Assembly: GCA_963781885.1 (NCBI GenBank)
Contig: CAWAHW010000006.1
Location: 1 to 64,000 of the forward strand
Origin: an uncultured Spirochaetota bacterium
Lineage (GTDB): Bacteria > Spirochaetota > Spirochaetia > SZUA-6 > Fen-1364
Length of the DNA stretch: 64,000 bases
Direction of reading: 5' to 3'
The translations under genes and the position numbers were made by a program. Below are positions 1-35,697 of the stretch, piece after piece (within the stretch, counting starts at the first letter, position 1; each line of letters opens with the position of its first letter). Below the pieces are notes generated by a model. It saw only the letters and a list, made by a program, of their open reading frames with translations. It was not told the DNA's origin and made no database searches.

Positions 1-485
1 CTCTCGAATGCGACGAACGCGGCGCCGCTTCTTGACTAGGCCATAGCGTTTGAGCACCAAGGCGATCGTCGCCACCGAAGGCACCTTCCGCCGACCACCA
101 TACCTCTCCGTGAGCAGCTGAAAGATCTTCAGCGGACCCATGCGAGGCCACCTGCCTCGTATTCGTACGATTGCCCGCTCGATGCTCGGTGCAGTGCGGT
201 TCCACACCCGCCGCGGAGCCCGCGATTGCTCCTTGAGTCCCGCTACACCCCGCAACAGATAGCGCAGTATGTAGCGGTAACCTAAAGTACGGGAGATACC
301 ATAAGATTTGCACAGAGCAGTGAACGTGTGCTGGCCTGACTCCCACTCAAGAACGAAACTAGCCTTTTCGTCCATCGCTGACCGTTCCCTCCAGGGCATC
401 CCGCTCTCCTCTCGGAGAAAACGTCGCCCAAAAAAGTGTCAACGATGTGCTTAGAATTCTGTCAACGATGTGCTTAGACAGGACC
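1..485 (-). mobile_element. IS481-family element A, partial copy (transposase 5' end and terminal repeats)
   Basis: Matches the end of the full copies at 29687-31005 and 34262-35580; ends ...TTAGACAGGACC. Confidence 0.93.
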
Positions 486-651
486 TTGTTCCGCCTAACA
501 TAGAGTTCAGTACCCGGCCCGCATCAGAACAGCACCACACCGATTGGCACCGGCAGCGGGTCTATTCGACAAGATTTTAGCCCGGAGTACTGCAACGATT
601 TGTTATGATCATCCCGTACGAAAAGGAAGAAGTTCTGCAGCAAACTGCCCG

Positions 652-1353
652 CTATATTCTTCCATGCCATATAGCGGTTGCCTCTGGCACTACAGGCTCT
701 CCAATCTGCTTTGTTTCAGCACCAATCTCGTCACCAAAGAAAAACGTTACGAGATCCACGGCTTCCACTATATTGGAGAATCTGTAGTCGGTCCTGATTA
801 TTGCTTTCTTAAGGCCCAGATCTCTTTCAAAGTAGTCATACAGCAAAGCCGTTTGAGCAGGCACTTCATCCCAGATGTGCAGAGAACCCATTGTCTCAAT
901 TAGGACAATGGCCCCTCTGGGTCGCAGTATCCGTTTCATCTCGCGCAATATGGCCTCAAACTCGAAACGCCATTCGGGTTGCGCAATGTAGAACGCCCTC
1001 AGGAAGGCCCATCCCTCAATAATCAGATCTATGCTCTTGTCGGGGAGCGGTATGTCCTTATGTTCTCCCGGTAGAAAGTCCACATTCTTGACGCCAAGGC
1101 TCAGCTTTTTGGACTCTGCGACAAGTCGCATCCCGCCGACCGGTTCTATTCCATAGACGTGGCGTACAATCGGCGCAACGAGGAACGCAATTCTTCCGGT
1201 GCCGCTTCCCAAATCTGCGACGGCCTGCTCTCTGTTTAGACTGCCAAATTGCTTTATGCTGTGCAGAAGGTTTCCTTGGAAATCTTCTGCGGCGACAAAG
1301 CGATCATACTTTTCAGCATGATCGGCGAACATGGCATCATAGTCTGGCAGCAT
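652..1353 (-). CDS. Class I SAM-dependent methyltransferase
   Basis: VADLGSGTG motif I and ILRPRG; start refined to MLPDY. Confidence 0.85.
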   Translation of the reverse strand: MLPDYDAMFADHAEKYDRFVAAEDFQGNLLHSIKQFGSLNREQAVADLGSGTGRIAFLVAPIVRHVYGIEPVGGMRLVAESKKLSLGVKNVDFLPGEHKDIPLPDKSIDLIIEGWAFLRAFYIAQPEWRFEFEAILREMKRILRPRGAIVLIETMGSLHIWDEVPAQTALLYDYFERDLGLKKAIIRTDYRFSNIVEAVDLVTFFFGDEIGAETKQIGEPVVPEATAIWHGRI

Positions 1354-1729
1354 TCTTGCCTCTTCTTGCAGTAGAAATATATCCCCTATGCAAGGGAAAT
1401 ATCCTCGCAAAGAATTCTTGATTGATCATAACATAGAGTTGAGCACCCGGCCCGCATCAGACAAAAACCACAAAGATTGGCGCCGGAAGCGGGTCTAATG
1501 AACCAAATTCTAGCCCGGAGTGCTCCAACGATTTGTTATACGGCGCGTCTATCGACCCGCCCTGGATGTTTTCGAGAGAAATGTTCACAGCATCACACAG
1601 TCTAGTGAATCCCTTAATTTTTGGTCTTCAATGCCGCCTCTGATATTGAACCCTCTATGCCTTTCTTTTTTCGATCGTTTGTCTTTTCTTATTAGCGTTA
1701 GTATTTTGCGATCTTAAGGAGCAAAGGAG

Positions 1730-2194
1730 ATGTCATACATCGTTGATTATGAAAACGTTTCTACGGTCGGCCTTGAGACCTCACCTGTAGCTACAGCGCT
1801 CGCTGGGTTACGGGCGAATGAGGCACGATACTATAGGAACAAGTACAAACACGAGTTCGCTGTAGAGAAGGCATCGGCGAGCAAAGATGCACTGTCGTAT
1901 GTAAGCCAGATTCTCAAGAAGGAACGAGATATCGTTTTGGGCGCGAAGCCTCTGGAAACTGCCCGCTTTCAGGTTGAGGACATTCTAATGACCTATGTCT
2001 TTTACGAAAGCGGTCTTGCGGTCAATGTAATGTATACCCTTCATGATCCCAAAAAGCGGGCCGTTGGATTCAAGCTTTCTGAAGGGATGGAAGTCCCACC
2101 AGAGCTGGAAGGCAAGTTCAAGTTCGCCAAGCAGAAGTCCAAGCTTGCTGGAGCAATCCGGGGCTCGTTCTTCGTGATCAAGGGGGAATACTGA
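1730..2194 (+). CDS. Conserved hypothetical protein in a reverse-oriented cassette
   Basis: 154 aa ORF with AAGGAG RBS; sole ORF between the attC sites at 1426 and 2307. Confidence 0.75.
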   Translation: MSYIVDYENVSTVGLETSPVATALAGLRANEARYYRNKYKHEFAVEKASASKDALSYVSQILKKERDIVLGAKPLETARFQVEDILMTYVFYESGLAVNVMYTLHDPKKRAVGFKLSEGMEVPPELEGKFKFAKQKSKLAGAIRGSFFVIKGEY

Positions 2195-2414
2195 GACTCA
2201 GTTCAGTTTTCCAGAGAAAGCAACGGCCTACGTGCGCCTGCCAGTCCAGCTTTGCCTGCAAACAGTCGCAATAGAACACGATCAAAGCAATTGCTCAAGC
2301 AGCGCCGTATAACATAAAGTTGAGTACCCGGCCCGAATCAAAGAGCGAGATTGTGTACGAGGACGGCCCTGGCACTATGCAGTTGAAATCTCAGCCGGAG
2401 TACTCCAACGCTTT

Positions 2415-2697
2415 GTTATGTCCAAGGCAGAAATGGCTAGAATTCAAGACGATCCAAAGTCTATTCCTTTGTCAGGAATTGCGTTCCGCAGTCATAGCCG
2501 GAGCGGCCATGCCACGGTGCGCGCGAATGGTCAGACGGTGAGGCGCGGCAGAAAAGGTGCGGCAGTCGTCCCGAAAGCTTTCGGACCAATGGCCGCGTAG
2601 CTACAAAGGTTCCAGATAGACTTGAATTGTAGAAGACTCCGAAACCTTCCCCCGAGCCCACATGAAGGTGTAAGAGTCGAATTCCTTTGGACATAAC
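2415..2697. other. ORF-less cassette, diverged member of non-coding family 1 (candidate structured ncRNA)
   Basis: Shares ordered motifs with the 11744 family: AAGGCAGAA, ATTCCTTT, GAATTGCGT, GAGCGGC, TGCCACGGT, CTTTCGGACCA, GGCCGCG, GAAGACTC, GAAGGTG. Confidence 0.7.
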
Positions 2698-2824
2698 ATA
2701 GAGTTGACCAGCGCCGCCGCATCAACCAACCCCACCCGACGATTAGGAAAGCGTTGGGTCTAAACAGATAAAATCCCAGGCGACTGGTCCAACGATTTGT
2801 TAGGCTCTTCTGCTTTTCGGAGGC

Positions 2825-4195
2825 CTACTTGCGATTGATCCAATCTGCTATCGCGGTGACCACCTCTGCGGATACATGACCAGGGCTTTCGTATTCAGAA
2901 GGAGTGCTCATTCCTTTGCCAGCGATGAATAGATGATTCAGGTCTGGATAATACAGAAAGCTTACATTCCCCTGGGCTCCGAGGGCGTCCTTCCACCCGT
3001 TGAAATCTCTAGTGGTAACTTGGTAGTCTCGACCTCCCTGGAGAACAAGCAGTCGCTGTGTAAGATCCTTTGCGGTCGCGGTGGGGTTGTACGATCGCAA
3101 GTCCAGCCAATAGGCAGGTGCTGCGCCGAGAATCACCTCGTCCTTCGGATGATCAGAAAGGTGCGGATCCTTGACTTCGGCGACTTGTGCGGAGATTTCC
3201 GCCATTTGCTTCTTTTGGTCTTCAGTTGGCCCGCCGTTGAGGCTAAAGATGTAGTTCGTTTGTTCTACAACAAGGTCCTCCAACGGCCGGGTCGGTCCCG
3301 CAAGGATAACCAGGCCGGCGGCGTCTGGAAGGGCTTCTCCAATTCTGGGGATCAACATTCCTCCTAGGCTGTGGCCTAAGACATAGATAGCTTTTGGATC
3401 AACGTTCGGAATCATTTTCAGTAATCCAACGGCACTGACAGCGTCATCTATAACTTCTTCCTTTACGGTGAGATCCTTGATGAAATCAATCATTTTTGCG
3501 GCATATTGTTTTGTTCGCTTTTCGTACCGCAGCACAACGATTCCGCGCGAAGCCAACCCCCAGGCCATGTCTTTGAAAGGCTTATTTGGTCCAACAGTTT
3601 CATCTCGGTCGTTCGGTCCAGATCCAGCAACAAGTACAACTGCTGGAGCAGAAGTGACGCCATTAGGAATGGTCAGGGTTCCAGGAAGTGTCCATTCCCC
3701 GGATCCAACCAGAACATCTTTTTCCGAGAAGGACGCCGTGTTTATGTATGCGGGCGGTTTGTATACGATCGCAGCTTCCTGAGATTTACTAATCCAGAAC
3801 CCGCCTATCAACTTCTGACTGTCAAACACGAGCTTTATGTCAGCGTCCTGCTTGGAGAAGCGGCAGTGCACGATTACCGTCTTCTTTCCGGCTTCAATTG
3901 TGCTTGTTGTGCCGAGAACCTGCCTGAATTCCCCAAACATGGAAACGACTGTAGGCCATACTTGCTTGAACTTGTCTTCGGTGAGAGCCTTTTTCACGTC
4001 ATCATTGAAGTAGCTCGACAATCGCGGATAGTCATTTTGAGAGAAGATCGTCACGAATTGGATAGACGTAGACGTAAACTCGTCCGTGATCGCAGTAGAA
4101 GACGCGGCTTGCACTCCCGCAGGACTGCTGACGCAAGATAAGAAGCCGCAGACCACCACGGCTGCAATGGCGAAAGAGACAAACACACCTTTCAT
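2825..4195 (-). CDS. Lipoprotein alpha/beta hydrolase with DUF3887-like N-terminal domain
   Basis: Signal peptide with lipobox-like FLSC; GSGPNDRD, GHSLGG nucleophile, QGGRDYQV and LNHLF motifs. Confidence 0.88.
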   Translation of the reverse strand: MKGVFVSFAIAAVVVCGFLSCVSSPAGVQAASSTAITDEFTSTSIQFVTIFSQNDYPRLSSYFNDDVKKALTEDKFKQVWPTVVSMFGEFRQVLGTTSTIEAGKKTVIVHCRFSKQDADIKLVFDSQKLIGGFWISKSQEAAIVYKPPAYINTASFSEKDVLVGSGEWTLPGTLTIPNGVTSAPAVVLVAGSGPNDRDETVGPNKPFKDMAWGLASRGIVVLRYEKRTKQYAAKMIDFIKDLTVKEEVIDDAVSAVGLLKMIPNVDPKAIYVLGHSLGGMLIPRIGEALPDAAGLVILAGPTRPLEDLVVEQTNYIFSLNGGPTEDQKKQMAEISAQVAEVKDPHLSDHPKDEVILGAAPAYWLDLRSYNPTATAKDLTQRLLVLQGGRDYQVTTRDFNGWKDALGAQGNVSFLYYPDLNHLFIAGKGMSTPSEYESPGHVSAEVVTAIADWINRK

Positions 4196-4810
4196 GCTAC
4201 GCTCCTTTGCGTATCCAGTATATGTGCCCAAGAAGAGCCTAACATAGAGTTGAGCACCCGGCCCGAATCAGACAAAAATCACAAAGATTTGCCCCGGAAG
4301 CGGGTCTAATGGAACAAATTCTGGCCCGGAGTGCTCCAACGATTTGTTATGCGTTTTACAGTTCTCCGTCAATTGTATCAATAGATTTTGCCCAAGGAAT
4401 CCTCCCGATGCACGTCAATAAGCATGAAACGGAGCTCATGTTCGCCCGGTCGAGAGCCGCACCTTTGGCAACGGCCAGCTTGCATAGAGTTCATCTACAA
4501 CTCACTCCACCTTCTCCTCGAAGAGCTTCTCCATACTGCTCGGCTAGATGTGACGTAGGACGGACTCAGTGGAGCCGTTGACATGCGTAAAAGGGGTATA
4601 GGCGACCGTCGATTTACCCAATTGATCCGCATCTGCCAGATCGTTTTGCACAAAGAGATCAAGCAACAAACGGCATTATGCCAGCACGTATCAAGGTCAA
4701 TGCGAGACCTTGGGAGCAGGGCGTATTAGGATCCGGACGTTTGGAAGTAGAAAGTTTTGCCTGCGGTGATTCCGTCTGCATCTCCGGAGGCAAAATGCTT
4801 TGCCCTGCTA

Positions 4811-6182
4811 TCACGGCGCTGAATCAAGAGCCTTTAGGCGAGTTTGAATATCTGCGAGACGATCTTCGTTTGGCGCAGGCATGCTAGGGATCACGGCGAA
4901 TTGCAACGCGCCCAGTATTCCGACCAGGGCGCCGACTCCGAGCATGCCATACCCCTCATACTGGAAGACATTCGCGGTTATGGCACCTTGAGGGAACATG
5001 CTGCCAAGATAGACAAAGGCCCCTCCGATCGCCCCCCAGTAGAGAAAGTTGCCTAGAGCGCTCGCACCTCTGATCTTTGCGTCACCAATGTTTTTGCTTG
5101 CTAAAGCGATCTCCAGAGAAATCTTTGTTTCTTCTGATAGGAGCACAGCTCTCTGGGCAGCACGGCTGGGCTGAAGGTCCGGAGAGAAAACGATGATTCC
5201 CCCCGGGGTTCCCTCAATTCTTGCTGTATAGGGATCAAAATCCGGGTGCCTGAGCCCGATCTGGTGCGCTCCAGCGGGAAGACTCACCGACAAGGGGCTC
5301 ACGCCGATTTGCAGGCCATCAATGGAAACATCCATCCCGGCGACTTTTGTCTGGATGCTCAAGCTGAATGCATCTGCTGAAGCATTCGAGCTCTTTTTTC
5401 GATTCCTCAGCCGTCGGGGTGAAATAAAAGTTATCCGTCAATGAGCTTGAAACGAATGGGACCTGCAGTTCGCCTGTTGCGGAGGCCACGTCGCGTCTTA
5501 CCTGGTTGAGAAGTGAATTGATCTCCAGACCCTGGGTGCGGATGTACTTGAGAAGGGTCTCTGTGAATAAGCCATTGTGGCCAGCACCATCGCTTGCCAC
5601 TTGGCCGGGACCCGTTGAAAAGACAACCATTGTGGAGAGTTGCGTCTTTTGAATGGTCAGCCCGCGACTCATGGTCCGAGTCGTCCGCGTGAAAGGATTG
5701 TCCCTGCAGGCGTCCAGTATGAGAAGGGCGTTTTTGGGCCGGACGGCACTCACACGCCCAAGGATATCGTCCACTGCAACGCCCTTCGACTTGACATCCT
5801 CCGGCGTCTGGGGCGCAAGGTCGATAGGGATGATGTAATTTCTTCCTTCGATCTGAATTCCATGTCCGGCATAGAAAACCAGGGCTGTATCGCCGACCTG
5901 AATTGAGGCGGCAAAATCATCCAAGGCCTTGAGTATGGCTTTCTGCCCGCCGTTGACAAGAAGGGTGGCTTGGAACCCAAGAGATGTGAGGGTCGAGGCC
6001 ATATCCCGGGCGTCGTTTTCGGGATTGATGAGCGGGGCTGATGGATATGCAAAGTTGCCTATGACCAACGCCTTACGCCCTGAGTCAGCCCATCCGGCAC
6101 ATACGGCAGAAATGAGGACGAGCGCAATCACGATAGCCTTGGGGACGTACAGACCGTAACGATTCAAGCTGGCTATTCTCAT
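4811..6182 (-). CDS. Caspase-family (peptidase C14) protein with PEGA domain and C-terminal TM helices; frameshift at the A6 run near 5395
   Basis: Signal peptide, ALVIGN, FYAGHG and LDACR dyad (5319-6182); the PEGA/TM part (4811-5362) continues in the +1 frame. Confidence 0.8.
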
Positions 6183-7582
6183 TTGTTCTTCTCCAATTTG
6201 TCAAGCGCGGCATCAATTGCCGCCAATGGATCGTCGTAGGCCTTTGTGCTGGCTTTGGGGGCAAAGTATAGGTAGGCCAGCCCAGCGAGGGCGCCGATTC
6301 CCAAAGAGATACCTGAAGCAATTCCCATCTCGCTTGAAGTGACACCTCGAATCGGACTGCTGGGATCAGACGGATTTCCGTTTTGTTCTACGGTCCAGGT
6401 GATTCCTGTAAAGATAAGGAGGCTTGCGGATACCCCCATCCCACCCCAAAAGGTATCCTTGGAAAGTTCTTTCGCCGCGGCTGCCGGGAGTGAAGCGGCA
6501 GCAAAGGCGCTGCGCTTGCGAACCAGATCCTGCTTTTCGACGAGCAGCTCCGAGATCTGGAAGTTTCGATTAGGCAGCAATTGAGGGGTCGACACGACGC
6601 GTTGCAGAGGAGAACCCGTCACGTCTTCCTCGAGACTCTCTTTCAATGGGTGGCGATAGAGAACATGGTGAGGTCCTGAGGGGAGCTCTAGCTCGAAATG
6701 GGCGCGACACCTGCACGGACTCCATCAACGAAGACCTCGAGCCCTTCCAAACTGCTTTCAACGGAGAAGGAAAAGGTTGATCCGCTAAATGCGGCGTTGG
6801 CTGTTCCGGGCAGGAAATACCAGTCGTCAAGAAGTGCATTCGTCGCAACCGGAACCAGACGTGAGGTCGATAGTGAGGCTTTGCGAACGCTATTGATGAT
6901 TTGATTCAGCTCAAGGCCAGGAAACCTGAGCGCGCTTGCAAGCGTTTTGGTGAAGGTGCCGATCTTGCCGTCGAACGTCGCGACTTTCCCCTGCTCCGCC
7001 CGCGTACAGCATCAGGGTATTCGGAAGCCCTCCTGTGAGTGAAAAGCCCGCGCTGACCTTGTCGATCGAAAGGACGGGATGATTTCGGTTCCCATCGATA
7101 AAAACTGCAAGCGATACTCCCTTTGCTCCCAAGCCGGCGCAGAGTCGGTCGAGCGGCATGGCTTCGAACTCTATGTCCGCTGCTGACCGTATTAATGCAT
7201 TCGTCGGAAGGAGATAATTTACGCCCTCATAGGAAAAACCGACACCTGAATAATAGATGCAAACCCTGTCGCTTGAAGTTGGACGTTCCTCGAAGGTTTG
7301 GATAAGTTCGGCTAGCTCGCGTCGGCCTAGGTCCTGCTTGAAAACGACCTGAAACCCATCTTGAGTAAGGGCCTTCTCCATGAGTCGTCCTTCATCGAGG
7401 GCTTCGGGAATATTCAGGTCTGCGTACTTGCTCTCGACAATGACAAGGCCATAGTCCGCAGAATGCAACGGTGAAGCGCTGGCGATGATCAAGAGTGAGG
7501 CGAAGAAGAGGGAGAGCATGAATTGCGTGGTGCAAGATATTGTCCGATAGTTCCCAAATGAATTGCCACTTGTACCAATCAT
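6179..7582 (-). pseudogene. Paralogous caspase-like + PEGA + TM gene with degenerate catalytic dyad and multiple frameshifts
   Basis: YYSGVG and IDGNR replace YAGHG and LDACR. The shifted frame after ~6985 reads GKVATFDGKIGTFTKTL...LEVFVDGV (PEGA) and then joins 6179-6646. Confidence 0.7.
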
Positions 7583-8329
7583 AGGCTCTCCTCCGCTTCT
7601 GCTCCCAGTTTAGAGTGACGGAGCTGTTTGTCAAGGCAGATTGGAATCATACCCATCTCGAGATCCTCCTTCGAAGCCATTTTTCGCATTGCACTCGCGT
7701 CGCTTTTTCTGCCATGGGCGATAACATCCAACAGTACTCCCTCGTCCTCCACATATTCGGGACAGGCTCGGCTACCCAGTCGGCTCGACAAGAAGACGGA
7801 ACTGTCCTATCTTGCCGAAGATGGCCGCAAACAACTCGCGCGAGACCGGGACTTCGGGCATTTTGAAATGTAACGAGCATGGCAAATTGCCTTTGCCCCG
7901 GTTTTGATCACCTTCCACCAAGGTGCTGTCATCGTCAAAGGCTCCACGCTCTTCGGAAGCGTAGTCTAGCGGAAAAAGCTTCCCAGGTTGCATGCGAGAG
8001 CGAAGAACCTATTGGATGAGCCAAACGTCGCGGTGGTGATTATGCAAGTCAATGATTATGCGAGCCAAATAGTGGAAAACAGCGATCGTTTGGTCGAGGT
8101 CAAGCATTCCATCTATGTCATCTACAGATTTGGGCCCTTACGTCGCATAGAACTTGCGAATCCATCGAAGGACCATTTTGTGCAAAACGCATAACATAGA
8201 GTTCAGCACCCGGCCCGCATCAGACAGCACCACACCGATTGGCACCGGCGGCGGGTCAATTGGAGCAGATTCTGCCTGGAGTGCTGCAACGACTTGTTAG
8301 AAGGCGCCTTCACCAGCCGGCCTATTGCC

Positions 8330-10874: not shown

Positions 10875-10899
10875 GATGGGCCTCCTCGGTGAATGTTAA

Positions 10900-11469: not shown

Positions 11470-11743
11470 ATTGGTTGTAGCAGCACTATAGAAGGTATCT
11501 GGCGGAAATCAAGTCCTTGGAGGTAGAAGCAATATGCTTCCTCCCTATAGAAATGACGTAGCGACAATAGCGCGTCTGCAATGGTTGGCAGTGGCCGTCA
11601 AGACGAGGCCTTTTACTCCAAAGGAATCTGGAATGGGCATAACATAGAGTTCAGCACCCGGCCCGCATCAGAATTGCACCACACCGATTTGCTTCGGAAT
11701 TGGGTCTTTCCTACAGATTCTGCCTGGAGTGCTGCAACGACTT

Positions 11744-12091
11744 GTTATGTTCAAGGCAGAATGGATTTGTAGTCTACGCTATGCAGAAGTCAATTCCTTT
11801 GGCCAGAATTGCGTCCGTAGGTTTTGCCAAGAGCGGCGTTGCCACGGTCTGCGGGGATTGAACAATAGGTACGAGCGCAAAGCCGAGCGCGGCTCTGTCT
11901 CCCGCTGCATCCGGACTGAACGGAGAGAAGAAATACTTGATCGTCCAGGCTTGGGACACCGGAAAGAAAAAGTCTTTCGGACCAGAGGCCGCGATGTTTC
12001 AGAGGTCCAAATGAACCTAACCTCTTGAAGACTCTTCAACTATCCAAAGATTCTGGAAGAAGGTGAAAGTTCAATTTCCTTAGAACATAAC
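11744..12091. other. ORF-less cassette, non-coding family 1 copy 1
   Basis: ~345 bp unit repeated at 45035, 51193, 54722 and 63612; frame-breaking indels between copies. Confidence 0.85.
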
Positions 12092-12214
12092 ATAGAGTTG
12101 ACCAGCGCCGCCGAATCACCCCAGCCCCACCCGACGATTAGGACCAAGTTGGGTCAAACCAGACAAATTCCTAGGCGACTGGTCCAACGATTTGTTAGAC
12201 GTTCTTTAGATTCT

Positions 12215-23089: not shown

Positions 23090-24409
23090 TGTCCTAACTA
23101 ACACATCGTTGACACTTTTCGCAGCACATCCTAACAGTTATCTCGCTGCCCTAACCAAGCGGCCGAGCTCATCCTGGATGCGCAGCTGCCGCTCGTCAAG
23201 ATAGCCTAACAGGGTGTCGCGGTAATACACGCGCCACTTGCCCTTCACGATCTGCTCCAGTCCGACGTACTTCTCGATCAGCGTTGTGCTGACGACGACC
23301 CACTTGCTGGAGCCCCAGCGGATTGCCCCGTTGCGGCAAACGTATTTCGTGCACATGCCTTCTGGATACTTCCAGGTCCTAGTTATGCGTGGAAGGCGGC
23401 GAGGGGAGTGGCGGTAGAACTCCTTGGGCCTCCTCTGTCCCAGCGTCTGATGAGGACGCTGCACGTTGTAGAAATGACGAAAGGCGTCGAACTTGTGTTG
23501 CTGCTGGACCAGGCTGTAGGCGGCCGGCTTTGTGGCCTCAGCCTTTAGCTCTTCGTGCATCCGCTCGTGACTACCGTTCTGCTCGGGGTGAGCCGGGTCA
23601 GAATAGACCGGCTGGATCCCCAGATCCATGAGCCAGACGGCAAGCCGCGTAAGCCGCGAGAGGCTCACCCCACTGGCGAAGGGCTCTCCGTTGTCACTGT
23701 GGATATCGTTTGGGCAAACCGTACTTCTTGAAAAGGGCCTCAAATACGGCCTTTGTGCCCTCATATGTGGGATTATGCATTCCCACCACCGCCAGCACAA
23801 AGCGGCTGTAGGCGTCCATGACGGTCAGCGGGTAGCAGTAGCGCCCGTCGCCCATGCGGAACTTCCCTTTGAAGTCCACGCTCCAGATCTCGTTGGGGGC
23901 CTTCGCCTCAAAGATCGGGTGCATCTCTCGAATGCGACGAACGCGGCGCCGCTTCTTGACTAGGCCATAGCGTTTGAGCACCAAGGCGATCGTCGCCACC
24001 GAAGGCACCTTCCGCCGACCACCATACCTCTCCGTGAGCAGCTGAAAGATCTTCAGCGGACCCATGCGAGGCCACCTGCCTCGTATTCGTACGATTGCCC
24101 GCTCGATGCTCGGTGCAGTGCGGTTCCACACCCGCCGCGGAGCCCGCGATTGCTCCTTGAGTCCCGCTACACCCCGCAACAGATAGCGCAGTATGTAGCG
24201 GTAACCTAAAGTACGGGAGATACCATAAGATTTGCACAGAGCAGTGAACGTGTGCTGGCCTGACTCCCACTCAAGAACGAAACTAGCCTTTTCGTCCATC
24301 GCTGACCGTTCCCTCCAGGGCATCCCGCTCTCCTCTCGGAGAAAACGTCGCCCAAAAAAGTGTCAACGATGTGCTTAGAATTCTGTCAACGATGTGCTTA
24401 GACAGGACC
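23090..24409 (-). mobile_element. IS481-family element A, copy with frameshifted transposase (~23705)
   Basis: Same as the other copies plus a net 1-bp insertion that splits the ORF into 23138-23800 and 23694-24323. Confidence 0.93.
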
Positions 24410-24536
24410 AAAACGCCTAACATAGAGTTGACCAGCGCCGCCGCATCAACCGGCACCACCCCGACGATTAGGACAAAGTTGGGTCTATCCAGATAAATTC
24501 CAAGGCGACTGGTCCAACGATTTGTTAGACGCATTC

Positions 24537-27110: not shown

Positions 27111-27257
27111 CGAGTCAATATACTACCATGTGGAGAGAATCTTAGAACCAGCTAACATAGAGTTCAGTACCCGGCCCGCATCAGAACCAAGGCACACCGA
27201 TTTGCCACGACGCCGGGTCTTTCCTACGAAATCACGCCGGAGTACTGCAACGATTTG

Positions 27258-27942
27258 TTAGGCATTTTCCTCTTGTATGGTTGCTACTATTCTTTCGAGA
27301 AATGGCTTCATGCGTCTATAACCCATTCTTGAGTCTGCTATTTCTACTTCTATCTGCTTCTGAGTTTCCGTTTCAATATGCGCAAGGTTTCTAAGCATAT
27401 ATGTAATTTTGATGTCCTCGGAATAGGCCACGTCCACAAATCCTATTCGAACCGCACAGTCGACTTTGTCCCGAAAAGCAATGCTGTTTCGTTCTGTCTT
27501 CTCATCCCGGGTAAACGCATGGGAAAACGTCTTCTTCGCCATACTTCATGGCCGTAAGATGAGCAAACGCACCGACCGGCTTATATGCTTTGTGCGTTTG
27601 GAGCAGCTTTACCTCGGGATGTGCCTTATAGCGGTTCCATAGAAGATGGGATATCACGGCTTCATATATTGATGCGTATTGGATGATTTGGAACTTCACA
27701 AACGCATGCAATTCGTCTCCCGTTGCAGACAGAGCCTCCATCAACTTTGCGATATACCGCGCCGAGTAGTAGGCTCGTCCCAGTCGTTTGCGGAGCTCTA
27801 CTTCCTCAATAAAGCCAAACTGGTCGACATGCCAGTCAAGGTTCCCAGGCAGGTGTTTGGTGCAGTACTCAAGCAACATCACTCTTGTCTCTTCATCGGT
27901 TGGCATTTGGAACCCTCTTTCGTAGTATCCAGCAGAAATCAA
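27258..27942 (-). CDS. Hypothetical, HEPN-like protein (frameshift ~27520)
   Basis: Two overlapping ORFs in one cassette; YASIYEA and LRNLAH motifs. Confidence 0.55.
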
Positions 27943-28171
27943 ACCGTTTCCTAACTACGCCAGCGTCATCAATCGGCGGCTAACGCAGCGAAGACATTTT
28001 GAAAACGCCTAACATAGAGTTCAGTACCCGGCCCGCATCAGACGGCACCACCCCGATTTGCGCCGGCAGCGGGTCTATCCAACAAGATTCTTAGTCCGGA
28101 GTACTGCAACGACTTGTTATGCGGACCCTCTTTCCCATAGTTCTTGGTTTCATTCTACGTGTTTGCCATAG

Positions 28172-28612
28172 TCATCTATTAAGACAATCATTCAACTGAA
28201 TTTCCATGTTCTTAAGATTCAAGTCATCGTTTCTTTTTAGTATGGAGGCTATCACGGCCTCCCGATGCTTGTTGTCTGCATCCAGTTCAAATTCGTTTGT
28301 CCACCTCAACAGTGATCCTTCACCACAGTCCGATAGTCTCTGAATAGACAGTTGGTATATGAAAGGAGGCATGGGCTGCCTTCGTTGGATGATTATGGCA
28401 AAAGTTTCTGGGATGGTAATCCTTTCTATCTCAACGTCACCTATTCCTTCCACCTTTGAAACAGATCGCATAAGTCGGTCATTGTGAAACAGTACGGCGG
28501 TGTTGCGTCCAAAGTTAGGATCAATGGCCTTCATAAAGTCAATTGACGCGATCTGTTTGAAAACTGCTTCTTTGGGAAAGCTAAATAGCACTTGTTCTTC
28601 AATTCTCGGCAT
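28172..28612 (-). CDS. SRPBCC/START-like protein (copy 1)
   Basis: Near-identical to 37829-38269; the fold call is a guess from the sequence pattern. Confidence 0.6.
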   Translation of the reverse strand: MPRIEEQVLFSFPKEAVFKQIASIDFMKAIDPNFGRNTAVLFHNDRLMRSVSKVEGIGDVEIERITIPETFAIIIQRRQPMPPFIYQLSIQRLSDCGEGSLLRWTNEFELDADNKHREAVIASILKRNDDLNLKNMEIQLNDCLNR

Positions 28613-28950
28613 AAAATCCTCCCGTTGGATTGTCTATGCCTTTCCTGGCGGACAACGTCTGCTATCTGGGAAGGCCATTATTATTACACGATTGGCCGCT
28701 TCTTGTCAATGCGCAAACGGTCGGGAGGAGTATCTGGCCTCGATTTGGCGCTTTTCGATATTACTTTCAGAGGTGAACTGGTGATCAACTCCGTCGGTAG
28801 ATCGGCACATTGGGGCCGCATAACATAGAGTTGAGCACCCGGCCCGCATCATGCTCCACCACACCGATTGGCTCCGGAAGCGGGTCTATTGAAGCAAATT
28901 CCAGTCCGGAGTGCTCCAACGATTTGTTAGATCCGCGTCCTTTTTTTGAG

Positions 28951-29292
28951 CTAAAGGGCAAACATTTCCTGGAGAACATCCAAAGTCTTTTCCAAAATGG
29001 CATTTGGCAGACGACCTAAGGGTCTTATTAGGCGAATTCTATCTACGGTTCTAATCTGATCGAGCACAATATGCCCGGACTTCCCTTTAAATCGGCATTC
29101 AACACGGAATGGGTAAGAATAGCTGCCTGTCGTCATGGGCGCTATAATAAAAGTGCGCAGATACTGATTCAATTCATCTGGAGACACTACGACGCATGGT
29201 CTGGTTTTTTTGATTTCTTGGCCCTTTGTGGGGTCCAAACTCACGAGCACAATGTCGCCACGCTTGATCTCCGTTGATTCTACCATTGCCAT
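28951..29292 (-). CDS. mazF: PemK/MazF-family toxin
   Basis: LDPTKGQEIKKTRPCVVVS and DQIRTVD motifs. Confidence 0.92.
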   Translation of the reverse strand: MAMVESTEIKRGDIVLVSLDPTKGQEIKKTRPCVVVSPDELNQYLRTFIIAPMTTGSYSYPFRVECRFKGKSGHIVLDQIRTVDRIRLIRPLGRLPNAILEKTLDVLQEMFAL

Positions 29293-29528
29293 TCAGTCTC
29301 ATCAAAAATGGTAGAGTTGTTGCTATCAATCAAGGCATCATCATTTCGATCATGCAGTAGCTTTGCTGAGTCGGCCCAGTCACTTCGCGGCTTCGAATTA
29401 GAGGTAATGACGATAGAGCCTTCCTTAACATGGATATCCACATCGTCATTTAGTCCAGCTTCTTCGATCATCGGTTTTGGCAACCTTACGCCGCGAGAGT
29501 TGCCAATTTGCACGAGTCTAGCCTTCAT
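29280..29528 (-). CDS. mazE: AbrB/MazE antitoxin
   Basis: IGNSRGVRLPK; upstream TTGACA-18-TATAAT. Confidence 0.9.
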   Translation of the reverse strand: MKARLVQIGNSRGVRLPKPMIEEAGLNDDVDIHVKEGSIVITSNSKPRSDWADSAKLLHDRNDDALIDSNNSTIFDETEWQW

Positions 29529-29686
29529 GAATCCGTCTCCGAGTGGTAATTACATTATATATACCAAAGTGGCGTTCTGTCAAGTCTTGCTTGGCGATGT
29601 ATAAAGGCCGCGGCGGTTCGGCTGTAAGCCAATTCATTTGTGTTCTGGTGATGCCAGCCTTGGACCCTAGAGACGAATTGATCTTG

Positions 29687-31005
29687 TGTCCTAACTAACA
29701 CATCGTTGACACTTTTCGCAGCACATCCTAACAGTTATCTCGCTGCCCTAACCAAGCGGCCGAGCTCATCCTGGATGCGCAGCTGCCGCTCGTCAAGATA
29801 GCCTAACAGGGTGTCGCGGTAATACACGCGCCACTTGCCCTTCACGATCTGCTCCAGTCCGACGTACTTCTCGATCAGCGTTGTGCTGACGACGACCCAC
29901 TTGCTGGAGCCCCAGCGGATTGCCCCGTTGCGGCAAACGTATTTCGTGCACATGCCTTCTGGATACTTCCAGGTCCTAGTTATGCGTGGAAGGCGGCGAG
30001 GGGAGTGGCGGTAGAACTCCTTGGGCCTCCTCTGTCCCAGCGTCTGATGAGGACGCTGCACGTTGTAGAAATGACGAAAGGCGTCGAACTTGTGTTGCTG
30101 CTGGACCAGGCTGTAGGCGGCCGGCTTTGTGGCCTCAGCCTTTAGCTCTTCGTGCATCCGCTCGTGACTACCGTTCTGCTCGGGGTGAGCCGGGTCAGAA
30201 TAGACCGGCTGGATCCCCAGATCCATGAGCCAGACGGCAAGCCGCGTAAGCCGCGAGAGGCTCACCCCACTGGCGAAGGGCTCTCCGTTGTCACTGTGGA
30301 TCTGTTTGGGCAAACCGTACTTCTTGAAAAGGGCCTCAAATACGGCCTTTGTGCCCTCATATGTGGGATTATGCATTCCCACCACCGCCAGCACAAAGCG
30401 GCTGTAGGCGTCCATGACGGTCAGCGGGTAGCAGTAGCGCCCGTCGCCCATGCGGAACTTCCCTTTGAAGTCCACGCTCCAGATCTCGTTGGGGGCCTTC
30501 GCCTCAAAGATCGGGTGCATCTCTCGAATGCGACGAACGCGGCGCCGCTTCTTGACTAGGCCATAGCGTTTGAGCACCAAGGCGATCGTCGCCACCGAAG
30601 GCACCTTCCGCCGACCACCATACCTCTCCGTGAGCAGCTGAAAGATCTTCAGCGGACCCATGCGAGGCCACCTGCCTCGTATTCGTACGATTGCCCGCTC
30701 GATGCTCGGTGCAGTGCGGTTCCACACCCGCCGCGGAGCCCGCGATTGCTCCTTGAGTCCCGCTACACCCCGCAACAGATAGCGCAGTATGTAGCGGTAA
30801 CCTAAAGTACGGGAGATACCATAAGATTTGCACAGAGCAGTGAACGTGTGCTGGCCTGACTCCCACTCAAGAACGAAACTAGCCTTTTCGTCCATCGCTG
30901 ACCGTTCCCTCCAGGGCATCCCGCTCTCCTCTCGGAGAAAACGTCGCCCAAAAAAGTGTCAACGATGTGCTTAGAATTCTGTCAACGATGTGCTTAGACA
31001 GGACC
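29687..31005 (-). mobile_element. IS481-family element A (1319 bp)
   Basis: Ends TGTCCTAACTAACACATCGTTGACA / GGTCCTGTCTAAGCACATCGTTGACA; tandem TGTCAACGATGTGCTTAGA at the transposase 5' end. Confidence 0.93.
29735..30919 (-). CDS. IS481-family DDE transposase
   Basis: MPW start, HTH, WSVDFKG, HSDNG and QNGSHER motifs. Confidence 0.93.
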   Translation of the reverse strand: MPWRERSAMDEKASFVLEWESGQHTFTALCKSYGISRTLGYRYILRYLLRGVAGLKEQSRAPRRVWNRTAPSIERAIVRIRGRWPRMGPLKIFQLLTERYGGRRKVPSVATIALVLKRYGLVKKRRRVRRIREMHPIFEAKAPNEIWSVDFKGKFRMGDGRYCYPLTVMDAYSRFVLAVVGMHNPTYEGTKAVFEALFKKYGLPKQIHSDNGEPFASGVSLSRLTRLAVWLMDLGIQPVYSDPAHPEQNGSHERMHEELKAEATKPAAYSLVQQQHKFDAFRHFYNVQRPHQTLGQRRPKEFYRHSPRRLPRITRTWKYPEGMCTKYVCRNGAIRWGSSKWVVVSTTLIEKYVGLEQIVKGKWRVYYRDTLLGYLDERQLRIQDELGRLVRAAR

Positions 31006-31150
31006 CTGGAGGCGCCTAACATAGAGTTCAGCACCCGGCCCGCATCAGAAATGCACCACCTCGATTTGCCCCGGAATTGGGTCTTGCCTACAAATTCAGC
31101 CTGGAGTGCTGCAACGACTTGTTATGGCTCAGCCAAAGCAGATTGGAGTA

Positions 31151-31910
31151 TCAGGCAATCTCACGTTCGAAGTATTTTTCTGCATCTTGTCTGAAATCAT
31201 CCAGGTCTGTGTATTGCTTATCTACGACGTTGGTAATGATTTTTCGATCCTTTTTAGAGAGTCGCTCGAAATCTTCGTGCACCGCTACACTTCTGAATGA
31301 GATGTTTTTCCTCAGATATTCGAGGCATGAGATGCTTACTAGGCGTGCTTTGGGGCTGTCCTTAACTGCAAAAAGATAAATATTCTTACTCTTACTTGGG
31401 AAAGAATAATCTACCTCGAGATCTTCTCTGTCGGGTATTGGTAGAAATGCATGAACTGGCTGGTACTTGGTAAGTTGCCCATCCACGAACTCCATTAGCT
31501 GCTCATAGAAGTGGCTCTGTATCAGCTCCCTTTTATAGAGTTGCATGTTTGTGATTTTTGATATGGCATGAGAAAAGGTGACAATCGTGTTGTACAAGAA
31601 CTCTTTCTCAGTATCGATGTAGAGATTGCCATTGCTCTTCTGACAGCCCATTTTCGGAGATAATCCTTTGGAATATCTTCTCCTTGTTCTGAGTATCGAT
31701 ATCAAACACATAGGAAAGCTTCATCAAGGTGAGGCCGTGATCACATACCCGTGCTTTCTCATTTGAGGCTGGCGCAGGCTCAACAAAGATATCGTACATG
31801 TCTCCGTCTTCATGGTAGAAGGGAGCGAAGAGTTGAAAGATACCCTTCTTCTTCTCGTGAAAGGCGACGCGGTTATTGAACTGCTTGCGAACTGTGTCCA
31901 GATAGTCCAT
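31151..31910 (-). CDS. DUF1828/DUF1829-like protein (frameshift ~31650)
   Basis: PFYHEDGDMYDIF..DHGLTL N-terminus and VDYSF C-terminus across two overlapping ORFs. Confidence 0.65.
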
Positions 31911-32411
31911 CTAGAAGAGCTCCATTTGTTTGGCGATGTCTGCGGTCACGTACTTAAAGTAGCTTTCTGCTCCCAAAATACTGCTGCGCCGGACAAAGTA
32001 AGCCAGGGCGTCTTGAAAGGTACCATACTCAGTTGTGATCTGAGCATTTCGTTCTGAACGAAGGCCAGCATCTATCGCTTCGGGCGTTGCCGTATGCACG
32101 TGATGGACATAGTGATGATCGGGAAGATCCACGAAGTTGACATGTGCTGCATGAGGGCCGTTGCATCGCAAAAGAATAATACTGCCGGAACCGTCTTGTG
32201 GCATGTATTCTAGTCCAATCGAAAAGTTTTCAGGAAAGTCCTCACTCTGCCGAATGAATACGTGAAATCGATGCTGGCCGTCGGTTGAAGTGACCATCAT
32301 ATCATTGCGATACGATCTGCGCTCGAGAGTCATACTTCTCTTTGGAGGTTCGGAAATACTTTTAGCACAAGTAATTAGGTTCTCAAGCTCACTTTGTGAG
32401 TATGAACGCAT
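31911..32411 (-). CDS. DUF6978-like protein, partner of the DUF1828 gene
   Basis: LLRCNGPH..H.H motif; its stop abuts the next ATG. Confidence 0.6.
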   Translation of the reverse strand: MRSYSQSELENLITCAKSISEPPKRSMTLERRSYRNDMMVTSTDGQHRFHVFIRQSEDFPENFSIGLEYMPQDGSGSIILLRCNGPHAAHVNFVDLPDHHYVHHVHTATPEAIDAGLRSERNAQITTEYGTFQDALAYFVRRSSILGAESYFKYVTADIAKQMELF

Positions 32412-32661
32412 GCTTGCCCTCTATCGCTCGTGGAATAGCATACTTGAATTCCTTGTTTGATTCTATATGCCCTTATCGGTCTAAACCGACAGATTCTGAT
32501 CATCAACCCGCCGTTTTGAAGTCTGCTGAGCCATAACATAGAGTTGAGCACCCGGCCCGCATCAAAGGGCAGATTGTGTACCGAGACGTTGGCGGCCGAT
32601 TCAGGCCAAATTCTTGCCCGGAGTGCTCCAACGATTTGTTATGCATTCAACCTTCTGGCTG

Positions 32662-33228
32662 TCAGTCATCATTATCTCTTGCTGAAATTCTATTTCCTTC
32701 CGTTGCCGGCTCAATCTGCGTTCTCAAGGCTGCAAGGCGTTCCTTTGCTGTTCCGGTTTCACGTAGGCCAAGACCCTTTCTCATCTGACCGCCAAAGCTG
32801 TAATTGTTGCTGGCGCTTCCGTTCAGCAGCGTTGCTTCCTCGTCGGAGAGTATCACTACTTCAGTTTGGCTCATAATCTCATGGATGACTGCTTGGGAGA
32901 CAACTTTGGCACTGGTCTTGGCCTTCAATAGCTCATTGAAAGTGGCCTCAATAGGCCATATGTGCTCATACATTACCTTCGCTGGTTCCTTTTGATATTG
33001 AATCCAGGCCCTCTTGGTAAAGCGAAAGTATCTTTTGTACAGGTCGAACACCTTATAAGGCTCCTGGCTATCCATGTCGAATTCCGGATAGTGTCTTATC
33101 AGAGTCTTTATGGTGACTTTGAATGCTGGCTTTGACAGCGTTTCGGCATCATAGCTATTCAGTATTTCAAGAAGCAGCCTTTCGCACAGACTCTGATACG
33201 GTGTAATGGACGAAGAGGCAGTTTCCAA
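32662..33228 (-). CDS. Hypothetical protein (YEHIWP motif), copy 1
   Basis: Homolog at 49545-50070; AGGAG RBS before a TTG start. Confidence 0.65.
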   Translation of the reverse strand: METASSSITPYQSLCERLLLEILNSYDAETLSKPAFKVTIKTLIRHYPEFDMDSQEPYKVFDLYKRYFRFTKRAWIQYQKEPAKVMYEHIWPIEATFNELLKAKTSAKVVSQAVIHEIMSQTEVVILSDEEATLLNGSASNNYSFGGQMRKGLGLRETGTAKERLAALRTQIEPATEGNRISARDNDD

Positions 33229-33479
33229 ATGGCGTTCTCCTTGCAAGTTGAATCAAGCAAATCAGGTTAGCAGGATTCAACTCCTCCTTAAAGGGGAAGA
33301 AAAGCGATGCAGTCTACGTGAGGAAATTGCAGCCTTTTAGCAAAAAGCGTCACCTACTTCACTCTTGAATGCATAACATAGAGTTGACCAGCGCCGCCGT
33401 ATCAACCAGCACCACCCGACGATTAGGAAGAAGTTGGGTCTATCCAGATAAATTTCGAGGCGACTGGTCCAACGATTTG

Positions 33480-34256
33480 TTAGCCATTTGGCGTCACCTT
33501 CGCGCCGCAAAGCTTCAGCAATGCAAAGTTGCCTTCATAGAAGTCCCCTGTCTGAGTTGCCGATTGAATTCGTGCAAGGCCTTTCCGATATTCCTTTTCG
33601 CTCAGGAGATTCAGCTGTGACATATCGCGGTTTCTAGCTTCTTCCAGCAACGAAGTCAAAGGAAAAGCCTTTTCGGTGATGGTCGTGGTCAGTTCCACGC
33701 TGAAGCCGCACTTTGCGAATGCCTTTCGCAGATGATCATTGCTCCAGAATCTCTGCCTATCAATTTTCCGTGCACCTTTGAAGTAGTGGTATACCCATGA
33801 CAGCGGCATCGCTTCGGGACAAATGTTCTTCATTTGGAAAACCCCACCTGGCTTCAAAATGCGGTGGAATTGGCTAATGCAGCTGACCTTACCTTGGAAA
33901 TGATGAAATGCAAAATTGCAGGTGACGAAGTCGAACTGCTCGTTGGGATATGGCAGATCCGCGGCATCAGCGGTTGTCAATTCGATACCATTTGCCAGCT
34001 TGGCCTTCGAAATAGAAAGCATGTCCAGAGACAGATCGCAGCCGTGCCACTTTATCCGCTTGTCGGGGAAATACTCTGTCTGGGCGAGGAGAAAGTTGCC
34101 AGTGCCGCAAGCAACATCCAGTATCAATATGGTTTTGTTTGTAGAAGAAAGAAGCCTACCTATGTGCGGCTCGGGGTCGTATTGAAGGCGAATGGGGTTC
34201 TTGTCGTAGACTTTTGCTATCGCCGAGTAGTCCGCAGTTTTCAAGAAGTTCTCCAT
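33480..34256 (-). CDS. Class I SAM-dependent methyltransferase (copy 1)
   Basis: ILDVACGTG, AFHHF and RILKPGG motifs. Confidence 0.9.
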   Translation of the reverse strand: MENFLKTADYSAIAKVYDKNPIRLQYDPEPHIGRLLSSTNKTILILDVACGTGNFLLAQTEYFPDKRIKWHGCDLSLDMLSISKAKLANGIELTTADAADLPYPNEQFDFVTCNFAFHHFQGKVSCISQFHRILKPGGVFQMKNICPEAMPLSWVYHYFKGARKIDRQRFWSNDHLRKAFAKCGFSVELTTTITEKAFPLTSLLEEARNRDMSQLNLLSEKEYRKGLARIQSATQTGDFYEGNFALLKLCGAKVTPNG

Positions 34257-34261
34257 TCCAA

Positions 34262-35580
34262 TGTCCTAACTAACACATCGTTGACACTTTTCGCAGCACA
34301 TCCTAACAGTTATCTCGCTGCCCTAACCAAGCGGCCGAGCTCATCCTGGATGCGCAGCTGCCGCTCGTCAAGATAGCCTAACAGGGTGTCGCGGTAATAC
34401 ACGCGCCACTTGCCCTTCACGATCTGCTCCAGTCCGACGTACTTCTCGATCAGCGTTGTGCTGACGACGACCCACTTGCTGGAGCCCCAGCGGATTGCCC
34501 CGTTGCGGCAAACGTATTTCGTGCACATGCCTTCTGGATACTTCCAGGTCCTAGTTATGCGTGGAAGGCGGCGAGGGGAGTGGCGGTAGAACTCCTTGGG
34601 CCTCCTCTGTCCCAGCGTCTGATGAGGACGCTGCACGTTGTAGAAATGACGAAAGGCGTCGAACTTGTGTTGCTGCTGGACCAGGCTGTAGGCGGCCGGC
34701 TTTGTGGCCTCAGCCTTTAGCTCTTCGTGCATCCGCTCGTGACTACCGTTCTGCTCGGGGTGAGCCGGGTCAGAATAGACCGGCTGGATCCCCAGATCCA
34801 TGAGCCAGACGGCAAGCCGCGTAAGCCGCGAGAGGCTCACCCCACTGGCGAAGGGCTCTCCGTTGTCACTGTGGATCTGTTTGGGCAAACCGTACTTCTT
34901 GAAAAGGGCCTCAAATACGGCCTTTGTGCCCTCATATGTGGGATTATGCATTCCCACCACCGCCAGCACAAAGCGGCTGTAGGCGTCCATGACGGTCAGC
35001 GGGTAGCAGTAGCGCCCGTCGCCCATGCGGAACTTCCCTTTGAAGTCCACGCTCCAGATCTCGTTGGGGGCCTTCGCCTCAAAGATCGGGTGCATCTCTC
35101 GAATGCGACGAACGCGGCGCCGCTTCTTGACTAGGCCATAGCGTTTGAGCACCAAGGCGATCGTCGCCACCGAAGGCACCTTCCGCCGACCACCATACCT
35201 CTCCGTGAGCAGCTGAAAGATCTTCAGCGGACCCATGCGAGGCCACCTGCCTCGTATTCGTATGATTGCCCGCTCGATGCTCGGTGCAGTGCGGTTCCAC
35301 ACCCGCCGCGGAGCCCGCGATTGCTCCTTGAGTCCCGCTACACCCCGCAACAGATAGCGCAGTATGTAGCGGTAACCTAAAGTACGGGAGATACCATAAG
35401 ATTTGCACAGAGCAGTGAACGTGTGCTGGCCTGACTCCCACTCAAGAACGAAACTAGCCTTTTCGTCCATCGCTGACCGTTCCCTCCAGGGCATCCCGCT
35501 CTCCTCTCGGAGAAAACGTCGCCCAAAAAAGTGTCAACGATGTGCTTAGAATTCTGTCAACGATGTGCTTAGACAGGACC
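34262..35580 (-). mobile_element. IS481-family element A with intact transposase 34310-35494
   Basis: CCAA target duplication; the empty site is visible in the paralogous cassette at ~57948-57962. Confidence 0.95.
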
Positions 35581-35697
35581 CCAATATGGCTAACATAGAG
35601 TTGACCAGCGCCGCCGCATCATCCAGCCCCACCCCGACGATTAGGACAAGGTTGGGTCTAAACAGACAAATTCTCAGGCGACTGGTCCAACGATTTG

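Follow-up and report, generated by a model that had tools for sequence, protein, structure and literature searches.

The stretch of DNA considered here (the window) comprises 64,000 nucleotides from an uncultured Spirochaetota bacterium (assembly GCA_963781885.1), namely the first 64 kb of contig C6 in a genome of 4.64 Mb, 63% G+C and seven contigs. It carries four copies of an insertion sequence (IS), designated IS A, each of which lies a few nucleotides outside an attC site in an array of integron cassettes (Table 1). The integron-integrase gene, intI (C6:69485-70420, plus strand; 400.8 bits against TIGR02249), is located just past the last of 65 attC sites, which run in a single orientation from 496 to 68237 (68.2 kb), and the cassette open reading frames (ORFs) are on the minus strand. 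The attC sites were counted genome-wide with a sequence pattern of our own, and the total came to 100, the further sites being at the ends of contigs C5, C4 and C1. With its intI gene and attC-cassette array, the target is a large sedentary chromosomal integron that was fragmented by the assembler.

Table 1. Coordinates of IS A copies, neighbouring attC sites, empty-site paralogues and element B in the window.
Feature	Position	Strand	Remarks
IS A copy 1	1..485	-	truncated at the contig start to its right-hand 485 bp; ...GGACC end at 485
attC by copy 1	496..605	-	R' TAAC at 496-499; 10 nt from IS end
IS A copy 2	23090..24409	-	1320 bp; frameshift splits transposase into ORFs 23138-23800 and 23694-24323
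attC by copy 2	24418..24527	-	8 nt from IS end
IS A copy 3	29687..31005	-	transposase ORF 29735-30919 (394 aa)
attC by copy 3	31017..31124	-	11 nt from IS end
IS A copy 4 (reference)	34262..35580	-	1319 bp; transposase ORF 34310-35494
Copy 4, distal inverted repeat	34262-34287		TGTCC...
Copy 4, attC-proximal inverted repeat	35555-35580		5'-GGTCC on transposase strand
Copy 4, target duplication (left CCAA)	34258..34261		4 bp; right copy at 35581-35584
attC by copy 4	35591..35700	-	10 nt from IS end
Empty-site paralogue of copy-4 target	57949..57962		...attCCAAtatggcTAAC, single CCAA
Empty-site paralogue of old C5 relic (C5:314441...318564)	58626..58651		...atctGAAaaccttcTAAC, single GAA; flank 99.6% identical
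Element B (second IS481-type element)	58769..60116 (boundaries approximate)	-	408-aa ORF 58797-60023

IS A and its transposase

The 1319-bp IS A has a single ORF of 394 amino acids (aa) on the minus strand, as have the cassettes; it is intact in three of the four window copies, and the element has no accessory gene. The transposase matches the Pfam models rve (1.5e-19) and rve_3 (6.4e-15), with HTH_32, HTH_29 and HTH_28 matches below their cut-offs. Its best curated model is NCBIfam IS481 (NF033577; 210 bits, E 4.9e-62, a score below the cut-off of 224), and IS3 comes second with 120 bits. Judged by these profile matches, with an rve domain preceded by a helix-turn-helix (HTH) region in one ORF, IS A is classed as an IS481-type DDE element. 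In an AlphaFold model (64 aligned sequences, pLDDT 88.9), two helical DNA-binding domains, an RNase H core and a C-terminal beta domain are predicted. A Pfam scan of the C-terminal 99 aa gave no match; a Foldseek search with the model matched IstA, TnsB, MuA and retroviral integrases, C-terminal beta-barrel included, and this segment is therefore accounted for as the usual beta-barrel. A sigma-70 promoter scan of IS A returned 0 sites, and a terminator scan detected none on the transposase strand from the transposase gene as far as the cassette downstream of it; one terminator-like site lies on the opposite strand, within the ORF.

The ends of IS A are TGTCCTAACTAACACATCGTTGACA and, on the transposase strand, GGTCCTGTCTAAGCACATCGTTGACA. 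Since the termini are TGTCC... (distal) and ...GGACC (attC-proximal), the attC-proximal end reads 5'-GGT. The inverted repeats of the IS481 family start with 5'-TGT according to ISfinder descriptions. The target duplications of this family are about 4-15 bp. The single non-canonical GGT terminus pointed out in the first-pass annotation is GGTCC in every IS A copy, and GGT is present in relatives too. CA-3' is found only at the distal end, and the unequal ends recall the IS2-type elements, which have asymmetric donor and acceptor ends. At each end an inner motif is duplicated internally, giving two direct sub-terminal repeats per end.

Insertions beside attC in this genome

Copies of IS A were located by repeat finding and BLAST over the whole genome, and those in the window show 99.8-100% identity. 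The spacers from the IS end to the TAAC of the R' core are ttgttccgcc (10 nt), aaaacgcc (8 nt), ctggaggcgcc (11 nt) and ccaatatggc (10 nt) for copies 1-4, and the adjacent attC sites fall in different sub-families (GAGTTCAGTACCC, GAGTTGACCAGCG, GAGTTCAGCACCC). Further full copies are present at C5:311126 (10 nt), C4:798297 (11 nt) and C4:802318 (12 nt). An older relative with 77-78% identity occurs in two halves (C5:314441-315323 and 318273-318564), with 2949 bp of DNA between them that is present nowhere else in the genome. Its outer junctions still have a 3-bp duplication and, at the right end, the spacing of 10 nt to TAAC. Altogether, 8/8 right ends at intact attC sites in this genome lie 8-12 nt from TAAC, all in the sense orientation. 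From the position and strand of intI past the last attC, it follows that each IS A opens a cassette, on the 3' side of the R' core. Multiplying 100 sites by 5 positions and one orientation gives a target of about 500 among about 9.25 million position-orientation states (about 5e-5 per insertion), and therefore 8/8 is far beyond chance, even within the array of about 126 kb. BLAST over the genome found no IS A copy outside the integron, and the copies outside the window are all in integron contig ends.

Several claims of the first-pass annotation can thus be judged. The distances of 10, 8, 11 and 10 bp that it gave for the window copies match the BLAST and spacer readings exactly. Its statement that each copy opens a cassette and is co-oriented with the array is borne out by the strands of intI, attC and ORFs, and the two attC families with differing targets are seen as distinct sub-families and spacers. 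Insertion only beside attC, which it had proposed from four copies, holds genome-wide: eight ends are at intact attC sites and one at a truncated attC, so that no majority of copies elsewhere lies away from attC.

An alternative without targeting would attribute this pattern to random insertion and survival between cassettes, or to IntI-driven cassette movement, segmental duplication or assembly error. An integron is dispensable DNA in which IS copies may accumulate, and the location of all copies at contig ends shows that repeats troubled the assembly. However, survival cannot give a 5-nt window and one orientation in 8/8, and the array is mostly dispensable ORF. Left flanks and spacers differ in every IS A copy, and because the spacer from the crossover point (between G and TT) to the IS differs each time, the copies were not moved as one cassette. 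Empty sites can be compared because cassettes recur as paralogues in the array; many are 76-97% paralogues (window 11626-12130, 44917-45422, 51075-51580, 54604-54903 and 63494-63998), and further repeat families in the window include D9-D14. The cassette on the left of copy 4 has an 89% paralogue without IS at window 57654-57952, where CCAA is single, while copy 4 has CCAA on both sides. In a contig from the public run X3, the same cassette continues straight into CCAA-TATGGCTAAC with no IS, which is an empty site in nature. Similarly, GAA is doubled around the C5 relic and single at its empty site in the window, showing a 3-bp duplication. In a contig from run X2, which belongs to a different study, the IS A end is followed by an 11-nt spacer absent from this genome and then by TAAC. 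Assembly duplication, raised in the first-pass annotation as a possible undoing of its claim, does not account for the copies, since their flanks differ, single-nucleotide differences (SNPs) and one frameshift are present, and the empty site is found in another sample. Empty and occupied forms thus both exist, the same rule is observed in unrelated assemblies (see below), and an origin without targeting is considered highly improbable.

After insertion of IS A the 7-bp R' core is whole, and as the insert lies 3' of the crossover point, the IS is part of the cassette that follows. At copy 4, the one case checked, a single nucleotide separates the IS from TTGG-A-ATG at the cassette ORF; the start codon is unbroken, and AGGA is placed 8 nt upstream of the ATG. 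The earlier suggestion of a safe site that lets the IS travel with the cassette is therefore upheld as to anatomy (R' core intact, downstream cassette, start codon spared at copy 4). No IS-plus-cassette unit was found at two places, and travel with the cassette stays an inference.

Some other features of the genome may be recorded here. A second full-length integron-integrase match is located at C5:114967-115890 (316.9 bits, above the cut-off), distant from the pattern-found attC arrays, and weaker integrase fragments are present at C5:41-46 kb. There is a lone attC-pattern match on the minus strand of C2, outside the arrays, and a 209-bp stretch identical to a cassette flank occurs twice on C2 (1129190-1129398 and 1141332-1141540). 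Among 92 unoccupied attC flanks genome-wide, a weak T-rich/YTTG motif is found at positions -13 to -8 before TAAC, with T at -11 and -10 in 54-56 of 92, the same place as the IS A duplication. This motif may be either a preferred target or an unknown signal at the cassette start.

Relatives, side and orientation

In the species-representative genomes only one locus of close relatives was found. A genome from a sister genus (G008) has a relative with 83% DNA and 85% aa identity; an attC of the same type lies beside it, and the element is 11 nt past the GTTA of this site. In a single-contig, low-GC genome from another family of the same class (G357), two different elements with 49-51% aa identity both begin 11 nt after an attC GTTA on the transposase strand.

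Metagenomes were scanned with a four-sequence alignment, and the best 80 of 586 confirmed loci (40-75% identity) were analysed, of which 62 were scorable, having a recognisable GGT end and at least 60 nt of flank. GTTR starts 13-16 nt before the GGT end in 48/62 scorable loci, compared with about 1.2 loci expected by chance, given how often GTTR occurs in these flanks in general; the spacer is 10 nt in 22 loci, 11 nt in 22, 9 nt in 3 and 12 nt in 1. A logo aligned on GTT shows GTTAG with a YT..AAC box 5 nt upstream, which is the L'-R' architecture of attC. By eye, the upstream site recurs in the same orientation within the locus in 11 loci, as in cassette arrays; an automated recurrence flag was raised in 18/57 loci, some of them with only inverted self-hairpin matches. 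No attC-like signal was found beyond the other IS end. Duplications of 3 bp could be read by eye in a few loci (L030, L041, L047 and L053).

In a quick maximum-likelihood tree of 88 proteins, the IS A clade has 99% support and all of its scorable rows (24/24) are attC-adjacent; in the sister clade 23 are attC-adjacent, 8 other and 10 unscorable. At least 120 clusters at 62% identity or higher were obtained from a protein collection, named only as 'transposase InsO family protein'. In a plasmid collection 89 records matched; their identity is below 43% throughout, and none falls in the attC clade. Those with 38-42% identity carry the annotation IS481 family transposase, and the two that were inspected (L110 and L111) are not beside attC. 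The earlier proposal, made from the window, that an IS481-type DDE element targets its insertions to the flank of attC is strongly supported, and the habit is a clade-wide trait.

The side of attC is not the same throughout. In the present genome IS A is 3' of R' and co-oriented with the cassettes. In G357 the plus strand carries intI (477453-478391) as well as the cassette ORFs, and both transposases are encoded on the minus strand. Each element there separates an ORF from the attC that belongs to it; it is antisense and outside attC, 11 nt 5' of the R'' TAAC. The GGT end is attC-proximal in both genomes. The intI of G357 is upstream of its cassettes in the same orientation (C1:477453-560000); Treponema denticola reportedly has an 'inverted integrase' layout like this one. 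Accordingly, the earlier statement that insertion is always on the same side and in the same orientation stands for IS A and its near kin and fails for the G357 relatives of about 50% identity, which are on the R'' side and antisense. The bulged bases of attC lie in the R''-L'' arm, a rule that was checked here on the present genome and G357 only. When the arms of metagenome sites were compared by eye, the extra bases were in the arm far from the IS in 6 of 43 (as in the present genome), in the near arm in 18 (as in G357) and unclear in 19. The strand of neighbouring ORFs, used as a side test at GC-rich loci, gave mixed results because of spurious ORFs and agreed only roughly with the arm comparison. 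Using the bulge rule, it is concluded that the side is fixed within lineages and different between lineages, and therefore each lineage would read some asymmetry of attC.

Element B, whose transposase is 39% aa identical to that of IS A, is next to the attC at 58648-58757; its transposase-distal end ...TGTACA is on the 5' side of the R'' TAAC, at a distance of 11 nt. In element B and its relatives in two other genomes (G015 and G021), the ...TGTAC(A/C) end is 11 nt (nine distinct sites) or 12 nt (one site) away, in the sense orientation. Other elements of this lineage in the present genome are at C4:791246-792485 and C5:332196-332589, making three genome sites with differing spacers, and loci of the lineage include L004, L007, L008, L010, L012, L014 and L018. 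It appears to represent an independent or mirror-image attC-targeting group.

On this evidence IS A belongs to a large and old IS481-type branch that transposes site-specifically to the outer flank of attC; we give this reading a probability of about 0.85. A number of observations weigh against it. One 93% variant (C5:320044-321361) directly adjoins an attC from which about 35 nt, the R' core among them, are missing, and it has the only right end off the spacing rule; adjacent deletion or insertion inside the site could be the cause. Target duplications are clean in only 4/7 full copies (one 4-bp CCAA, two of 3 bp, and one 4-mer with one mismatch, CTTG/CTGG) and absent from three, where exchange between direct copies or an adjacent deletion could have removed them. 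In the metagenomes, 14/62 loci fail the automated spacing rule. By eye, these include mis-set termini (L050, L079), a mutated core at 11 nt (L093, L106), spacers of 15-17 nt (L059, L097), a possible degenerate attC (L082), short non-attC hairpins (L088, L107, L096, L104) and nothing recognisable (L087, L094, L103). An arm-duplex test for attC was passed by 17/42 metagenome loci at a 5% control threshold, and a constrained-fold test of the flanks gave a noisy median z of -1.1; since such energy-based tests are too noisy, the offset statistic, the L'-R' logo and the repeated sites are relied on here. The automated duplication test mostly failed to place the right ends of metagenome loci, because the sub-terminal repeats misled the aligner. 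The side assignment in metagenomes depends on the bulge rule and noisy ORF strands, and related loci are not independent of each other.

Target recognition

The fixed spacing of one helical turn across attC sites that share little beyond GTTRRRY and the fold points to the R-box end of attC (the GTT/AAC core and the adjoining stem) as the probable docking place of the transpososome. Joining would then take place one turn off, with 9-12 nt (mostly 10-11) between the core GTTA and the GGT-type end, and a staggered cut would give the 3-4 bp duplication just outside the 7-bp core; because the cut falls there, attC and the neighbouring ORF would stay intact. Movement is probably by copy-out-paste-in, as in IS3/IS481 relatives, these two families being related to each other. 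The IS may ride with the downstream cassette and may be read through into it.

We favour the transposase as the likeliest guide: with its pair of N-terminal HTH domains, its RNase H core and its C-terminal beta-barrel, it would read the R box within the attC hairpin or cruciform. A lineage-specific reading of the asymmetry of attC may set the side, R' and sense for IS A, R'' and antisense for the G357 elements. The GTTRRRY 7-mer was considered as the sole guide and rejected: by arithmetic it is expected thousands of times in 4.6 Mb, as against 8/8 insertions at attC, and since it is too frequent to explain these, more than the 7-mer must be read. Candidates for the further cue are the adjoining stem as a structure, IntI on the site and host-specific flanking sequence.

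The main rival, possible though not likely, has IntI as the guide; the transposase would then not read the DNA but bind IntI on the R box of attC and insert at the edge of its footprint. The spacing of about one turn from the R box is constant across otherwise differing attC sites; the fold is shared with partner-targeted enzymes (partners being IstB, TnsC/D, MuB and host factors) and the IS carries no partner gene; and intI genes are present in the genomes G000 (the present one), G008, G015 and G357. IntI binds attC mainly as a folded single strand, which speaks against this guide because such a strand is not a target for DDE strand transfer, and some relatives stand next to palindromes other than attC, at which IntI is not known to act. 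In behaviour the nearest parallel is offered by the IS1202 family, whose members lie on the XerC side of dif sites at a distance of 5 bp; direct contact with XerC was proposed for them by Harmer, Pong and Hall (PMC10132070). Intrinsic reading by the transposase is ranked ahead of tethering to IntI.

An improbable alternative is that the transposase mistakes the R' arm of attC for its own inverted repeat and inserts alongside. Targeting of such pseudo-ends is known for IS911 without OrfA and for IS30. The distal repeat of IS A, GTCAACGATGTGTTAG-TTAGGACA, can be set against the attC sub-family GTCAACTCTATGTTAG-GC..., with GTTAG nearly in register relative to the tip or junction, and the near relatives L030 and L035 also bear TTAG motifs at the distal tip. 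However, the likeness, judged by eye, is lost across the clade, where GC-rich members end in ...GTTACCTATCTCCCCGACCGTTCA with no in-register R'-like core, and the end proximal to attC is the other repeat.

Reading of structure by the transposase fits the hairpins beside relatives that are not at attC. Among nine such flanks chosen by eye (seven from metagenomes and those of the plasmid relatives L110 and L111), hairpin z is below -3.3 in four, with the hairpin ending 2-6 nt before the IS, and from -1.6 to +1.0 in the other five. Five relatives at 40-42% identity (L088, L096, L104, L107 and L110) are located 2-9 nt after GC-rich hairpins or a twice-repeated 12-bp palindrome; L110 is on a Cupriavidus taiwanensis plasmid of 157.9 kb (NZ_LT984809.1). 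These cases hint at a general liking for palindromes in this branch of IS481.

A wider proposal, to which we give roughly even odds, is that of a widespread, undescribed 'IS481-attC' assemblage made up of several lineages within a single DDE transposase branch. Its members would read an asymmetric feature of the folded attC (or bound IntI), insert one turn outside the R box on a lineage-specific side and so become passengers of cassettes that they do not disable; sense copies may supply transcription and a ribosome-binding site to silent cassettes far from the promoter Pc. If this is true, they would form a third, mechanistically distinct class of attC-seeking element, with a protein-only reader of a DNA hairpin site. 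Two kinds of attC-homing element are known, and the third would use an ordinary DDE transposase with no guide RNA or helper gene, which raises the question of how a DDE enzyme finds a site defined more by shape than by sequence; one protein and one hairpin site would make a simple test system. In many bacteria, mobile adaptive genes are stored chiefly in the cassette arrays of integrons. Because the insert spares the attC core and the gene and is within cassette boundaries, the IS may be able to pass from one integron to another along with a cassette. Homologous copies in direct orientation could cause the loss of whole blocks of cassettes, and sense copies could switch on silent ones. In annotation and integron-finding pipelines, the position rule could be used to flag 'transposase cassettes' as invaders, and the GTTA-N10/11-GGT junction could serve as a signature for finding attC in metagenomes.

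Comparison with known systems

No description of IS481-type elements targeting attC was found in the full-text literature, the search leaving most subscription journals, supplements and ISfinder outside; the first-pass annotation, too, knew of none, and earlier notice is possible. In recent integron papers, only the IS1111 group is cited for attC targeting. The IS1111-attC group (ISPa21, ISPst6 and ISKpn4; IS110/IS1111) is described as a monophyletic subgroup of its family, with a fixed position and orientation in attC (PMC3001079, PMC11187229); its transposase is a DEDD enzyme with target choice by a seeker RNA (PMC11187229), and its members insert antisense to the cassettes, at a point close to the 5' end of attC (PMC3001079). 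In contrast, the transposase of IS A is a DDE (rve) enzyme of IS481 type, and the element is located outside attC, 3' of R', in the sense orientation and with a 3-4 bp duplication. The G357 relatives share the 5' side and antisense orientation with the IS1111-attC group but sit outside attC.

Group IIC-attC introns are described as monophyletic specialists for attC hairpins, whose relatives outside this group target palindromes such as terminators (PMC3001079), and this parallels the non-attC hairpins next to relatives of IS A. Being retroelements, these introns enter the attC itself, on its bottom strand and in antisense orientation; IS A is outside attC and sense. The ORFs of IS A encode only the rve transposase and no reverse transcriptase; no ribozyme was seen, though no Rfam scan was run.

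The ISAjo2/ISAba71 group of the IS1202 family consists of single-gene DDE elements found at dif/pdif sites, at a fixed distance of a few bp, in one orientation and with a short duplication (PMC10132070). They resemble IS A in the TnsB-like order HTH, HTH, RNase H and beta-barrel and in having extra internal transposase sites at each end. They differ in their location on the XerC side of dif at 5 bp, a 5-bp duplication, transposases of 441-457 aa related to TnpAjo2 and TGT/ACA ends (PMC10132070), whereas IS A has 394 aa, a GGT end and IS481 as its best model; the two are set apart here by description.

For IS1397 and ISKpn1 of the IS3 family, REP palindromes are chosen as targets and the transposase sets the specificity (PMC1525189, citing Wilde et al. 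2003), and therefore a reading of structure has a precedent. The likeness lies in a DDE transposase that chooses extragenic palindromes; these elements insert into the loops of REP/BIME rather than beside attC. The list of REP-targeting families in that survey comprises IS3, IS110, IS4, IS256 and IS5, without IS481 (PMC1525189). With the canonical IS481 elements (Bordetella IS481 and plasmid members), IS A shares the single HTH + rve ORF, a length of about 1.3 kb and terminal inverted repeats; it differs in its score below the cut-off, its one GGT end, its 3-4 bp duplication and its attC target. Overall, mobile elements that target attC are already known as a kind, and to these the IS A branch adds a targeting habit that is real, non-random and clade-wide.

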